A DNA stretch of 64,000 bases from a virus. Lineage: Duplodnaviria > Caudoviricetes. The notes below the pieces were generated by a model. That model did not search any database. It had not been told where the DNA came from and saw only the letters and a program-made list of their open reading frames with translations. The translations under genes and the position numbers were made by a program. Where the stretch lies: IMG/VR virus record IMGVR_UViG_3300011242_000003, positions 32,001 through 96,000 of that record, one strand, 5' to 3'. Positions 13,305 through 58,178 of the stretch are shown here, piece by piece (positions within the stretch are counted from its first letter, which is position 1; every line of letters begins with the position of its first letter).

Positions 13305-13781
13305 AGAATAGTATAACTTACTATTCTTTTTTCTTTTGCTCCAGTATCAACAAACAATATAAAATTCACATTTTAACTGTGTATTATTGTAGATATAACG
13401 TTATTTGCTCCATATACGCTCATAGTTACATTTTAAAGTTATAAAGGTATAAACAAGATAATAACAGATAAAACACGTTATAATTGATTTTGTGACTATG
13501 TTATTTTAGATTACAATATATTATCTACATAAAACTTACTAAAACAAGCCTACAATAACTCTATACACTCCATATTGCCATTTTAACGCCACTTAGCACG
13601 ATTAAGGGTTAATTACATTACCAACTCGATTAAAACGTGTTAGATGTCATTTTACGAACACAATAAATATTAACAACTATACATATTTTGTTTACAATTT
13701 ATTAACTTTACAATATATATAACATAGTTTATAATTATAAGTGTAGAGGAGATATAAAACTTCTACATTACTACATAAAAC

Positions 13782-13837
13782 TTACTAAAACAAAATATTA
13801 AAAAGTTGTTGACATTAGTTAAGTATAGTAGTAAAAT
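13782..13837 (+). promoter_or_regulatory. Sigma-A promoter with upstream phage operator motif
   Basis: TTGACA (13809)-17 bp-TAAAAT (13832), preceded by AAAATATTAAA. Confidence 0.7.
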
Positions 13838-14357
13838 AAAGATAGTTAAACAAGTCATTACATAAAATCAAAAGAATTTATCAAAAATATTATATTAAAT
13901 TAGGTATCAAATTCGATACTACTGCATATAATATAATATAATATATAGATAAATAAGAAGTTCTTAGAAAAGTAAATAGTGTAGATACACACGAGACAAG
14001 TACACCGTAACATTTTATGTTATGCTAGTTTAGAAAAGTAAGAAAGTAGAAAAAATAGTAAAACCAAACTAAAGTAAAATAAATCTTAAAAGAGTGTATT
14101 CAAATTTAAATAGTAAATCAATGAATTGAAATATTAAGAGTATAAAACCTAACCGACATTTAATTAGAGCAGTAAATTATACTAATCTTACAAACTGCAT
14201 AAGCGACTAGTAATATTAATATATAGCCAGTTAGTGCGACTTGCTAAGTTATTTATAACTTATATGTTTTATACTCTTATCTTAACTAGTGTAAATATGT
14301 TACAATGTTTATAGTAATTAAGATTTAAAATTTAATTATGAAAAGGGGTTATGAGTT

Positions 14358-14675
14358 ATGAAATTTTATTATAAAAATAACGGAGAATTAAAAGGGGAAC
14401 TTAAGAGTGTATTCTGTAGTGATTATAGTATAGAAATTAGACTACTACATTGTCAAAATAGAAAAGCAATAAGCACAGATTTAGAAATTAATGTTTTAAA
14501 TAAAGATGGAGATTATGTAGATACGTTTATCCATAGTACTATTAAATCCGAGGGAGATTATGATAGTGTTATAGATTATAACACAAACGAATTTGAAAGT
14601 GTTAAAAAGAAACTTTACAAATATTTAGATACACATTTTCATAACGTTAAAATCATTGAAGATTGTGAAGGATAA
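14358..14675 (+). CDS. Hypothetical phage protein
   Basis: ORF with RBS in early-gene array. Confidence 0.7.
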   Translation: MKFYYKNNGELKGELKSVFCSDYSIEIRLLHCQNRKAISTDLEINVLNKDGDYVDTFIHSTIKSEGDYDSVIDYNTNEFESVKKKLYKYLDTHFHNVKIIEDCEG

Positions 14676-15070
14676 GGAGGAGTAAAATCCTTCCAAAGTA
14701 CATAAAATAAGACTTTTAAGTTAAAAATTGTTAGGATTTATAAGTAGAAAAAATTTATAAATCCTATAGAGTTTTTAAATAAACAAATATATTAAAAATA
14801 AAACTGATATTTTAAAGGCTATTTATAGCCTTGTACATATTAAACTAGTTGGATAAATTAGTTTAAACGTAGTTTCTATAGGTTAATCTAAAAAATCTAT
14901 AATACAGATGAATAAAAAATACTAAAAGGTTATACTATTAATGTGAAGAACTAAAGAAAAATTAAGTAAAATAAAATATTAAAAAGACTAGACAAAAATA
15001 TAAAAAGTATGCTATAATGAATTATAAGATAAATCAAGAAAAAATATTAAATGTAAAGGGGTAATACAAA

Positions 15071-15361
15071 ATGTTAGAAAAAATATTTAAAATGTTTATA
15101 AATGGAGAAAGAGAAAAAAGAGAAAATTCAACTTTATACTATGGTATGGCATCTAGCAGTGATTTATTTTATCACAAGTGTAAAGAGTATGGTTTTGCTG
15201 ACGTAGAATATAACTACTATCAAGTAGCACTGTGTAATGATGAAATGTTAGCAACTATAAGCTATACTGAAGGCGATGTATACCTAGAGGTGTTCAATAG
15301 TAAAGAATCTTACTTAGAAGGCAAAGAAAAATTCATTAACTGGTATAAAGAAAATTGTTAG
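15071..15361 (+). CDS. Hypothetical phage protein
   Basis: AAGGGG RBS; promoter at 14989-15018. Confidence 0.7.
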   Translation: MLEKIFKMFINGEREKRENSTLYYGMASSSDLFYHKCKEYGFADVEYNYYQVALCNDEMLATISYTEGDVYLEVFNSKESYLEGKEKFINWYKENC

Positions 15362-15449
15362 AAATAATATATTAAATAGTCGTTAATAGCAAACGGAGAT
15401 TTGCAACGGCAATACATAATAAAATAATAAATATAAAGGGGTAGTTAAA

Positions 15450-16019
15450 ATGAAAAATAAATATATAATTGAACAAATGGCAGAGTCAAGATGGTTTTAC
15501 ACATTTACAGAAGCAAATAAAAAAGGTGAAAAATTAATAATTGAATTATCAAAATGTGAAGATAACACTTCAAAAAATTCATTACCTAAACTTTGGAAAC
15601 AACATGGTTGCATTGACAGAGTTTTGGAAAATTATTGGAGTATTAACACCTATGTTAAAGATACTGAAGGAAATAGTTATGGTATGTATAATCCACAACA
15701 TAAACTAACAGAAGATAGAAAAAGGGAAGTTATAAATTTTGAATGGATGTTTGAAGCAACAGAAGAAAATAAGGAGAAATTAATAAATGAAGTGTATAGG
15801 TTATTTTCCTCAGCTAAGGGAGAAACTGCTACAGAAGAGAAAAAGAGAAATATAAAAGAATATGCAATAAAAAATAATATAGATATATATAAAACAATAC
15901 CTCGAGGATGGAGCAAGTCAAATTATTGTCTAACTGCTCCAATAGGGACAATTTGGATAAATAATAATAAATCATTTAAAAGCGGATGCAGAAAACAAAG
16001 TATATTGCTTGTAGGTTAG
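15450..16019 (+). CDS. Hypothetical phage protein
   Basis: AAGGGG RBS; 189 aa. Confidence 0.75.
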   Translation: MKNKYIIEQMAESRWFYTFTEANKKGEKLIIELSKCEDNTSKNSLPKLWKQHGCIDRVLENYWSINTYVKDTEGNSYGMYNPQHKLTEDRKREVINFEWMFEATEENKEKLINEVYRLFSSAKGETATEEKKRNIKEYAIKNNIDIYKTIPRGWSKSNYCLTAPIGTIWINNNKSFKSGCRKQSILLVG

Positions 16020-56174: not shown

Positions 56175-56195
56175 TTAAAAAAGGAGAGATAAGAA

Positions 56196-56606
56196 ATGAT
56201 TAAAGATTGTGAAACTTGTATACATAATAGAGGTGGAATTAATTGTGGTCTTAAACCTAAATATAATGATTATAAACTAGAAATGGAACAGTTAATTGAA
56301 AAATGGGGAGAAAATAATGGATTTGGGTTTTCATTGGATTGTCCATCGTGGTATGAAGAGCCTAGTAAAATTAAAGTTACTAATGATGTAAAAGGTATTA
56401 ATGATTGGTTTGAAAAAGAAAAGAATATAATTTTCAAAGCTGAAGATATAAACATTAAGCCTATGGAAATTAAATTTGGCAAAGAGTTAGAATGCACATG
56501 TTGTATAGAAAATGAAAATGTAAAAGATAGAAATGTTGATTGGGTAATTGCATTACCTGAAGAAATTTTGAAAAGTGTGCGAGATGGAAAATACATGAAT
56601 CATTAA
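56196..56606 (+). CDS. Hypothetical Cys-containing protein
   Basis: CETCIH...C...C. Confidence 0.7.
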   Translation: MIKDCETCIHNRGGINCGLKPKYNDYKLEMEQLIEKWGENNGFGFSLDCPSWYEEPSKIKVTNDVKGINDWFEKEKNIIFKAEDINIKPMEIKFGKELECTCCIENENVKDRNVDWVIALPEEILKSVRDGKYMNH

Positions 56607-56654
56607 AACAAGAGTTTTAAAAGTAAAATATTAAAAAGAAAGAAGGAATTGTTA

Positions 56655-56942
56655 ATGAAAAGACAAATTAGAAGAGGAGTTTTTGAGACCAATTCAAGTT
56701 CAACACACAGTATTACAATGTGTTCCAAAGAAGAATATGAAAGATGGGAAAAAGGAGAGCTATTATTGAGTTATTGGAGAGATGAATTTGTAGAAGCAAC
56801 TGATGAGAATAAAGAGGATGAAGATAATAAAACATATGATGAATATTGGGATGATTGTGAATTTGAAACATATGAGAACTCATACACAACTAAAAGTGGT
56901 GAAAAAGTAATAGCCTTTGGATATTACGGTATAGATAATTAA
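56655..56942 (+). CDS. Acidic FETNSSS-motif protein, partner of radical SAM
   Basis: MKRQIRRGVFETNSSSTHSI. Confidence 0.75.
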   Translation: MKRQIRRGVFETNSSSTHSITMCSKEEYERWEKGELLLSYWRDEFVEATDENKEDEDNKTYDEYWDDCEFETYENSYTTKSGEKVIAFGYYGIDN

Positions 56943-56966
56943 TTAAATTAGAGAGGGTGAGATAAT

Positions 56967-57851
56967 ATGAGATTAATAGGAGATTACATAAACGGAAATT
57001 ATACAGTAAAAATATTTGATGATGGTACAAAAGTTAGAGAAACTAATGAAGATGAATTTAAAGCTAAATTTCCTGAGAGTATGGATGTTAAAATAACTAA
57101 TTATTGTGATATGAATTGTCCAATGTGTCATGAAGGTTCTACTACTGAAGGTAAGCATGGTGATTTATTAAATGTAGATTTTATAAATACATTGCATCCA
57201 TATACCGAATTAGCTTTAGGAGGAGGTAACCCATTATCTCACCCACAATTAATTGAGTTTTTAAAGATATGTAGAAGTAAAAGAATTATAGTTAACATGA
57301 CAGTAAATCAAAAACATTTCATGAATGAGCAGGAATATATACAGCTTTTGATTGACCATAAACTAATAACGAGTCTAGGAGTTTCATTGACAAATGTAAC
57401 CGATGAATTTATAAAGACTATTCAACAATATCCTAATATAGTTTTACATATAATAAATGGCATGATAAGAATTGAAGATTTAAAGAAATTATATGATAAA
57501 AACATTAAAGTATTGATATTAGGTTATAAACAATTTAGAAGAGGAATTGTTAATTATAAGAATAATGGTGAAAATATAGAAGACCTCAAAGCTGAATTAT
57601 ACAATGAGTTAGAAAATGCTATAAATCACTTAAAGGCAGTTAGTTTTGATAACTTGGCAATAAAACAATTAGAAGTAAAGAGATTAATGTCTCAAGAAGA
57701 ATGGGGCGAATTCTACATGGGTGATGATGGAAAGTTCACGATGTATGTTGATTTAGTTGAACAGAAATATGCTAGAAGTTCTATATCTGAAAAAAGATAT
57801 GATTTATTAAATAACATAGATGATATGTTTGAAATTATATTAAAAGAATAA
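56967..57851 (+). CDS. Radical SAM protein
   Basis: CDMNCPMC, LGGGNP, NMTVNQ. Confidence 0.9.
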   Translation: MRLIGDYINGNYTVKIFDDGTKVRETNEDEFKAKFPESMDVKITNYCDMNCPMCHEGSTTEGKHGDLLNVDFINTLHPYTELALGGGNPLSHPQLIEFLKICRSKRIIVNMTVNQKHFMNEQEYIQLLIDHKLITSLGVSLTNVTDEFIKTIQQYPNIVLHIINGMIRIEDLKKLYDKNIKVLILGYKQFRRGIVNYKNNGENIEDLKAELYNELENAINHLKAVSFDNLAIKQLEVKRLMSQEEWGEFYMGDDGKFTMYVDLVEQKYARSSISEKRYDLLNNIDDMFEIILKE

Positions 57852-58178
57852 AATGAAAAATTTAATGGAATGATTTGTAAGTATGGTTATTGCTATTTTG
57901 GAAAAGACCACTAAGTAATTTTATTATATGACGAAGGGGAGATATTGATGGAAGAAGTAAGACCTAAATGGGGGCATAGGAATAGACGATAATTGGGGAA
58001 GTTTTCTTATAGGTGCAAATATCAATATAGGTAATTGGAATGGTTTTAGATATGGTTATATTTGCATTTACTTAGGATTTAAAACTTTGATAATTGGAAA
58101 AGATGCGACTTTTGACAAAACAAATAGAAATGATTAAATATATAATTCAAAGATATTATATATGAGGAGGAATTAATA

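Follow-up and report, generated by a model that had tools for sequence, protein, structure and literature searches.

Recombination sites of the Xer/dif type, including the pdif (dif) modules of Acinetobacter plasmids, are 28 bp long and consist of inverted 11-bp arms with A-rich inner ends around a 6-bp spacer; in pdif modules many copies per replicon bracket discrete gene modules, and one of the arms is better conserved. In engineered cassette exchange with heterospecific lox or FRT sites, distinct spacers block intramolecular recombination and permit swaps between matching site pairs. T4-type phages harbor PeSL cassettes, promoter-plus-stem-loop composites that recombine via their own homology (PMC2839356, PMC4122927), and the repressor MrpR of SPbeta, which has a recombinase fold, gave 10 peaks in chromatin affinity purification sequencing (ChAP-seq), all located at the element SPBRE to which it binds (PMC10516654). 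Here we consider a repeated intergenic palindrome, TAAAW-N6-WTTTA (M1), in a 64,000-nt stretch of phage DNA (“the window”; bases 32001–96000 of the 146,794-bp IMG/VR record IMGVR_UViG_3300011242_000003; 27% GC; ~79% complete). An original prediction, made from the letters of this stretch, had interpreted these palindromes as a possible integron-like cassette system. We demonstrate that M1 is a motif with a fixed polarity that is conserved throughout a phage family, that it persists together with its spacer between genes that have been replaced, and that it coincides with both mosaic and experimental junctions. Judged from sequence comparison, we give an about even chance to the explanation that the sites are crossover sites of a phage protein of the tyrosine-recombinase family, which would allow in-register exchange of modules.

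The 16-base core of M1 was found 30 times in the window, where 10.6 ± 3.4 matches are expected from dinucleotide shuffles (shuffle maximum 18). All 25 exact positions of the original list match the core, and the two one-base variants at 39581 and 54976 are also present. The prediction proposed to compare spacer lengths with a null, and this comparison (k = 0–20) revealed a sharp peak at k = 6, with 30 matches vs. 3–17 at each other k in the window and 24 vs. 0–7 in its intergenic DNA; k = 5 (9 in the window, 16 in the genome) is at background level. An unbiased scan of all 5-base inverted repeats in the genome also ranked TAAAA-N6-TTTTA first, with 28 copies vs. 3.8 at other spacers. The motif is polar: a G at +20, four bases past the last A, accompanies 22 of the 24 intergenic sites of the window and 33 of the 39 sites genome-wide, each oriented by the local gene strand, whereas the mirror C at −3 occurs at only 12 of these 39. 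Core plus downstream WNNG form a 20-base pattern, hereafter an M1 site, which matches the whole 146.8-kb record 38 times forward and 16 times in reverse, vs. 1 + 1 for the reversed control. Four additional core matches in the window (18993, 27532, 29524, and 49546) lie within open reading frames (ORFs), lack the downstream G, and are due to chance; 27532 and 29524 are the only matches in the lysogeny block, which, as claimed, contains no true site. The additional match at 61130 is intergenic and is counted as a true site. The spacers have a higher G+C content than the surrounding DNA and none of them is palindromic.

All genes between 13 and 64 kb of the window are on the plus strand, and the layout of the record is of the SPbeta type, with a minus-strand late cluster (terminase, portal, tail, and tape-measure genes) and a plus-strand early/replication cluster (primase, Pol III alpha with an intein, ribonucleotide reductase, ligase, and gyrase). 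The sites are located 0–13 nt past the upstream stop codon and, in agreement with what had been reported, the TAA of the site is itself this stop codon in 12–13 cases. The next start codon comes as little as 16 nt or as much as >300 nt further on. Where a gene is followed by a GC hairpin, the site is positioned beyond the hairpin.

The same palindrome, TAAAA-N6-TTTTA, is the top-ranking one in SPbeta, with 41 loose matches (vs. 4–15 at other spacers) and 34 exact matches (vs. 0–3), and the SPbeta sites occupy the same place relative to genes as in the present phage. Alignment of 33 intergenic SPbeta sites resulted in the consensus T-Y-T-n-R-A-TAAAA-N6-TTTTA-W-W-Y-A-R-A, symmetrically conserved from −5 to +22, i.e., a 28-bp palindrome of two 11-bp arms and a 6-bp spacer with the Xer/dif-type architecture of two inverted ~11-bp arms around a 6-bp centre. 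The tyrosine-recombinase geometry that had been recognized in the window is, therefore, stronger than could be seen there. The inner arms of the present phage are those of SPbeta, its outer right arm is W-N-N-G (W at +17, G at +20), and its left outer arm is weak. In both phages the downstream arm is the better conserved one and the upstream arm overlaps the end of the coding sequence. Counts of TAAAA-N6-TTTTA in other phages, compared with a reversed-pattern control, were 34 vs. 2 for SPbeta, 31 vs. 7 for c-st, 30 vs. 7 for Geobacillus E3, 23 vs. 3 for Tsamsa, 17 vs. 2 for Perkons, 17 vs. 8 for a Staphylococcus SPbeta-like phage, and 7 vs. 3 for Lactococcus 949. The negative controls gave 0 vs. 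0 (SPO1), 4 vs. 4 (phage K), and 0 vs. 2 (SPP1), and k = 7 yielded only 1–4 matches in the five phages tested. More distant metagenomic relatives, the contigs L144 (8 vs. 0.6) and L148, also carry sites. Judged from this distribution, the motif is not special to this phage but characterizes the SPbeta-like phages and related large siphoviruses of Firmicutes. The literature searched contains no description of it, and the palindromes that the SPbeta record annotates have other sequences; the sites in SPbeta and its relatives seem, therefore, to be previously undescribed. The 16-mers at 13360 and 35682 are identical to those of SPbeta site 2629 and c-st site 29637, respectively, and about one such identity is expected by chance among ~1800 site pairs.

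The helicase encoded at 37024–39579 has many relatives, and the homologue search with this protein provided the useful ones. No useful relative was obtained with a megablast of the window against phages or by scanning the genomes of IMG/VR and GTDB for peptides of MrpR and the helicase; a metagenome scan for relatives recovered only two short contigs, and a scan of IMG/VR for the composite of M1 and a second motif, M2 (see below), only single chance matches. The closest contig, L141 (13 kb), has a 96% identical helicase and one 4.9-kb block in common with the present phage (92.5% nucleotide identity), and, of its 25 genes, only 5 correspond to any gene of this phage. It contains five sites with the same spacers and in the same order as those at 32127, 33346, 35682, 40068, and 41447. 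At four of these the sole homology is an island of 19–36 nt, which runs from the first T of the site to the ribosome-binding site and is flanked on both sides by unrelated ORFs. In contig L012, the MrpR of which is only 49% identical, the spacer of site 32127 and the next seven bases are kept between unrelated genes. As anticipated, breakpoints thus fall at the sites, here as well as in the SPbeta family (see below), and from these alignments the sites outlast the genes around them: they are fixed to positions and their spacers are kept while their neighbours are replaced. Furthermore, a ~50-nt element composed of a variant site and M2, located after the helicase, is present three times in L141 (L141:9186–11523, compared with 39560–39788 of the window). 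Each of these copies comes after an extra gene (403, 137, and 137 amino acids), as if genes were added by duplicating the spacer element.

For the SPbeta family, comparison of the 62–113 kb region of SPbeta with phi3T, Goe13, and Goe11 gave 58 unique ends of homology blocks, 15–16 of which are located within −12 to +30 of 13 intergenic site loci that make up 1.1% of the region, and seven blocks start at −2 to 0 relative to the site. Some 43% of the block ends falling at gene borders have a site, compared with ~18% of plus-strand gene ends. Sites with identical spacers and unrelated sequence on both flanks occur at 69424 (in each of the three relatives), 88400 (vs. phi3T), and 86074 and 86886 (vs. 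Goe11), and with one unrelated flank at 86074, 86886, 88400, 92394, 92753, 95129, and 99498. Dragos et al. (10.1101/2020.05.06.055103, Suppl. Table 1) listed 16 homologous junctions and one non-homologous junction between SPbeta and phi3Ts in evolved cultures. We converted their Bacillus subtilis 168 coordinates (g) into SPbeta coordinates (x = 2,286,453 − g), a conversion with which three anchors are consistent to 5 nt. Junction 7, the sole one on short homology (30 bp), corresponds exactly to the site island SPbeta 69421–69447/phi3Ts 62420–62446. On the SPbeta side the sole non-homologous junction, N1, lies within the site at 116415–116430, at the border of arm and spacer within ±5 nt, a position that hints at cleavage there, although this is suggestive only.

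We propose that each 16-bp palindrome is the central part of a dif-like site, in which inverted arms enclose a position-specific spacer of 6 bp. TAAAW is the inner arm, and the outer arm ends with a G at +20 in this phage and with A-R-A in SPbeta. Some 40–50 of such sites are placed directly past the last stop codon of each small gene block throughout the early region, and at a lower density in the late region. A phage protein of the tyrosine-recombinase family, for which the YopP-like protein encoded at 23822 and the YomM-like protein encoded at 131180–132184 of the genome are candidates, would bind to each site in dimeric form. Because these enzymes need identical spacers for strand exchange, the only productive partner of a site would be the site of the same number in a related phage residing in the same cell. 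Two of such crossovers would swap the intervening genes and leave the gene order undisturbed, which is the principle of recombinase-mediated cassette exchange. The wider proposal, that ~30–50 heterospecific dif-like sites form a genome-wide scaffold for in-register module exchange in SPbeta-like and related large Firmicute siphoviruses, is a more tentative one, to which we give somewhat less than an even chance.

The block containing the first candidate has the yopP-yopQ-yopR order of SPbeta and c-st. The original prediction had suggested the recombinase encoded at 23822 as the enzyme and described it as intact. Its R, HxxRH, and Y residues indeed align as a full catalytic set, and its best solved relatives are XerA and XerD (E about 1e-22), compared with 1.7e-11 for IntI4; it is only remotely similar to SPbeta YopP (~24% through intermediates). 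It stays one candidate, its link to the sites being putative, and it is rivalled by the YomM-like protein, which is far better conserved than YopP, YopQ, and YopR (~25%). A total of 108 phage records contain a YomM homologue; of the enriched phages tested, all but c-st have one. The YomM-like gene is at least as good a candidate for the enzyme. In Tsamsa and Lactococcus phage 949 the YomM homologue is located just upstream of the tape-measure gene. Genes with a tyrosine-recombinase fold and without an assigned role are conserved across these phages.

Several observations argue against such crossover sites. Firstly, we infer the binding of a protein, cleavage, and the identity of the acting protein. 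SPbeta YopP and both YomM proteins possess HxxK, whereas canonical enzymes possess HxxR. The original prediction made a point of all cores being different, which is correct since no two spacers within the genome are identical. However, this is uninformative because only ~0.7 identical pairs are expected by chance, and spacer uniqueness within a genome gives no statistical support. Sites were not enriched in 18.5 kb of L149, a Sarcina contig from a metagenome-assembled genome that carries YopP-, YopQ-, and MrpR-like genes. With respect to mosaicism, ~73% of the block ends in the SPbeta family are not at sites, and a site-free promoter spacer of the present phage (30758–30856) is also a conserved island. 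Fifteen of the 17 published laboratory junctions fall within 0.4–20 kb of homology and are, therefore, attributed to ordinary homologous recombination; deposited phi3Ts-SPbeta hybrids have long-homology junctions only. For junction N1, the printed numbers place the phi3Ts end 15 nt ahead (upstream) of the phi3Ts site that has the identical 16-mer and, consequently, N1 is not a clean site-by-site exchange. Finally, the polarity with transcription, the TAA that often serves as a stop codon, and a fixed register of 10–11 nt with M2 would also fit a role in gene expression.

M2 is a second, commoner intergenic motif, the core of which, ATATTAAA, was found in 56 of 139 co-directional spacers vs. 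11 expected; the motif reads (G)WAAAWATATTAAAW. Every strong TTGACA-type −35 has M2 5–7 nt ahead of it, in the manner of an UP element; otherwise M2 immediately precedes the ribosome-binding site. In at least 12 cases its start is 10–11 nt past an M1 site. M2 resembles M1 with one arm changed (TAAAA-N6-ATTAA). In L148 (a contig from Logan SRR26782595 and a more distant relative) M1 is followed at the same distance by another second motif, TAAYAAATTAAT, which replaces M2 and suggests that M1 and the second element co-vary. Three simple roles in expression were rejected for M1. A promoter for the host or phage RNA polymerase was dismissed since no conserved −35 or −10 element was found around the strand-oriented sites genome-wide and a sigma-A-like promoter comes after only ~5 of 40 sites, the remaining ~35 being inside operons with no promoter nearby; the phage polymerase YonO uses a single late promoter (PMC5467207). 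For an RNA hairpin or terminator the only possible stem has five A-U pairs. A ComK box (A4-N5-T4) needs a 5-base gap, and k = 5 is not enriched.

It is possible, though less likely, that the sites form a regulatory or architectural array, i.e., that they are operators, roadblocks, or insulators of a conserved DNA-binding protein that silences or partitions the early region. The binder could be an inert recombinase-fold protein or the ParB-like YopQ, for example (SPbeta YopQ is ParB_N-like; PMC8612738), and the mosaic junctions would arise from conserved short homologies at the module borders. This would agree with sites that are polar with transcription, abut stop codons, and keep a fixed register with M2, with the lack of the second catalytic arginine in YopP and YomM, and with other conserved spacers that also behave as islands. 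In addition, the family already possesses a recombinase-fold repressor, MrpR, and yopP and yopQ are expressed in lysogens. However, orthologous sites have kept their spacers, i.e., bases that should not be read by a dimer, over deep divergence (L012, the SPbeta family), the ~35 of 40 sites within operons have no promoter nearby, and junction 7 formed on only 27–30 bp of homology.

It is less probable still that the sites belong to PeSL-like promoter/terminator cassettes that recombine, owing to their mutual similarity, by homologous recombination of the ordinary or the relaxed kind, a mechanism put forward for T4-type phages. In this phage, repeated elements between genes flank small ORFs that vary, composites of M1 and M2 occur throughout the genome, L141 has three copies of the 39581 element around extra genes, and the phage encodes recombination functions, all of which would be expected for such cassettes. 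On the other hand, few of the sites (~5 of 40) precede a promoter, a 5-bp A-T stem is too weak for a stable hairpin terminator, and different sites are alike in 5 + 5 bases only, which leaves little homology to recombine on.

An early leading hypothesis took the sites for the operator bound by the MrpR-like master repressor (27231–28316), and thus for the SPBRE version of this phage; it was prompted by the presence of an MrpR-family gene and a palindrome with recombinase-site geometry. It was dropped once SPbeta proved to carry both elements, which differ in sequence and spacing: SPBRE as derived from the SPbeta sequence is ATACA-N7-TGTAT. All MrpR ChAP-seq peaks are at SPBRE, and the M1 core is identical in phages with MrpR proteins that are only ~25% identical, so that we consider this very improbable.

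The integron-like system originally suggested, in which every gene would come with an attC-like site of its own and an integrase would capture it or excise it as a circle, has hardly any probability left. The sites are indeed just 3′ of ORFs, often contain the stop codon, and have a recombinase gene nearby, but they stay put while genes change, measure 16–28 bp without attC structure, and are not accompanied by an attI/Pc platform; moreover, sigma-A-like promoters occur inside the array, and the recombinase encoded at 23822 is closest to XerA and XerD and not to IntI. The integron label is, therefore, to be abandoned. Of the shuffling of cassettes at these sites, what stands is that recombinase-type sites border exchangeable blocks and that breakpoints fall on them; the integron-like model and the restriction to this phage do not. 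An origin by chance, from intergenic DNA that is AT-rich and from TAA stop codons, which the GC content of about 25% and the four coding matches that are truly chance might suggest, is refuted by the spacer spectrum, i.e., by the confinement of the excess to k = 6, as well as by the conserved downstream G, the reversed control (1 + 1 vs. 38 + 16), and the presence of the same motif in SPbeta with 35% GC and its absence from SPO1, K, and SPP1.

The coordinates of the sites and of related features are compiled in Table 1. Other genes in and around the window include a TnpB/IS605 OrfB gene (PF01385, PF07282; 30863–32126) with a terminal hairpin, which is inserted immediately upstream of site 32127, a site that L141 and L012 carry without this insertion. 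An FtsH-like AAA protease (42299–44029) in the early region is full length (AAA, M41, and extracellular domains); the homologue search gave no close relative of it, the nearest being ~60% identical and on short contigs. The Pol III alpha gene (genome 99769–104052; L025:3769–8052) contains an intein (Intein_splicing and Hint domains), as do the ribonucleotide reductase genes of SPbeta.

Table 1. Positions of M1 sites, M2 examples, and candidate genes (window coordinates unless stated otherwise).
Feature	Position	Strand	Remark
M1 site with downstream WNNG	13360–13379	+	In large non-coding region
M1 core without +20 G	14703–14718	+	After GC hairpin that comes after ORF 14358–14675
M1 site	14799–14818	+	Pattern match
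M1 site	16694–16713	+	Followed by M2 and TTGACA-17-TAAAAT promoter
M1 core without +20 G	17827–17842	+	TAA is stop of ORF 17266–17829
M1 site	18337–18356	+	Pattern match
M1 site	18582–18601	+	TAA is upstream stop
M1 site	19325–19344	+	TAA is stop of ORF 18923–19327
M1 site	21075–21094	+	Pattern match
M1 site	22185–22204	+	TAA is upstream stop
One-mismatch M1 variant (GTTTA arm), with G	30840–30859	+	Upstream of TnpB gene
M1 site, spacer TGAGAT	32127–32146	+	Conserved island in L141 and L012, unrelated genes around
M1 site	33346–33365	+	L141 carries the same 16-mer with an unrelated left flank
M1 site fused to M2	35682–35701	+	TAA is upstream stop; identical in L141
One-mismatch M1 variant with G, plus M2	39581–39600	+	After helicase; intergenic element three times in L141
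M1 site	40068–40087	+	36-nt island common to L141 (97% identity), unrelated ORFs around
M1 site	41447–41466	+	33-nt island common to L141, unrelated ORFs around
M1 site	42219–42238	+	TAA is stop of ORF 42033–42221
M1 site	44521–44540	+	TAA is upstream stop
M1 site	46270–46289	+	TAA is upstream stop
M1 site	47270–47289	+	Pattern match
M1 site	51110–51129	+	Followed by M2 and TTGACA promoter
M1 site fused to M2	52176–52195	+	
M1 site	53074–53093	+	TAA is upstream stop
M1 site fused to M2	54027–54046	+	TAA is upstream stop
One-mismatch M1 variant (TAAAG arm) without G	54976–54991	+	TAA is stop of ORF 54082–54978
M1 site fused to M2	56604–56623	+	TAA is upstream stop
M1 site	57849–57868	+	TAA is upstream stop
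M1 site	61130–61149	+	Missing from original list
M2 examples	16721, 19616, 28366, 28467, 35709, 39697, 51166, 52202, 54053, 55019, 56628, 60349, 60434, among others		
XerC/D-type tyrosine recombinase, intact	23822–24778	+	SPbeta YopP position; PF00589, E = 1.8e-36; candidate enzyme
YopQ homologue	25748–27214	+	26% identity to SPbeta YopQ, E = 1e-15; conserved synteny; alternative candidate binder
MrpR/YopR-like repressor, recombinase fold	27231–28316	+	PF22822, PF22823; context only, not M1 binder
MazF-like gene	28547	+	Lysogeny block
YomM-like recombinase-fold gene	Genome 131180–132184 (L027:3180–4184)	minus	Late cluster, outside window; 52% identical to SPbeta YomM

Mosaic genomes in which gene order is nevertheless kept pose a long-standing question, which is usually answered by rare illegitimate recombination combined with selection or by relaxed homologous recombination. 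M1 is a candidate for a third route, i.e., a short, conserved, position-addressed element at module borders, and its presence in SPbeta places it in a genetically tractable model phage. The sites may account for the in-register exchange of genes among these large phages, and if they are crossover sites they would constitute a dedicated, site-specific engine of phage mosaicism and a natural form of recombinase-mediated cassette exchange. They would also add a function for the unexplained recombinase-fold genes conserved in these phages, and would serve as a practical marker of accessory modules, such as defence, toxin, and host-takeover genes, in this phage group.

Of the systems mentioned at the outset, a single dif site per replicon, which serves dimer resolution, is clearly different from the 53 core matches in the 147-kb record. 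The attC sites of integrons are comparable in their position at the 3′ end of ORFs and in the tyrosine recombinase that is encoded nearby, but they are 55–140 nt long, fold as a single strand, and travel with their cassette, whereas M1 occupies fixed positions in a scaffold. SPBRE occurs in the same phage family, is likewise a dispersed intergenic inverted repeat, and has a binder with a tyrosine-recombinase fold; unlike M1, it has a conserved spacer and is present in ~10 copies at promoters, and both elements coexist in SPbeta. PeSL cassettes correspond with M1 in that both are repeated between genes, flank small ORFs that vary within hyperplastic early regions, and fall on the breakpoints at which close relatives differ by insertion, deletion, or replacement. 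Instead of a promoter and a stem-loop, however, the M1 sites are short palindromes with variable cores, mostly promoterless, and with the geometry of recombinase sites. In layout, M1 resembles Xer/dif and pdif, i.e., in the arrangement of arms and spacer, the A-rich inner ends, the many copies around modules, and the unequal conservation of the arms. The arms of M1 are, however, almost pure A/T, and all sites are co-oriented with transcription and do not alternate; in contrast to pdif, the spacer is conserved per position, modules are replaced between fixed sites and do not move with them, and the sites reside in phage genomes instead of plasmids, with the enzyme known as candidate genes only. 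To our knowledge, cassette exchange between heterospecific sites has no natural counterpart in phages. The lox/FRT scheme is a laboratory design, and the M1 spacers, at which activity is putative, would act in the same way.

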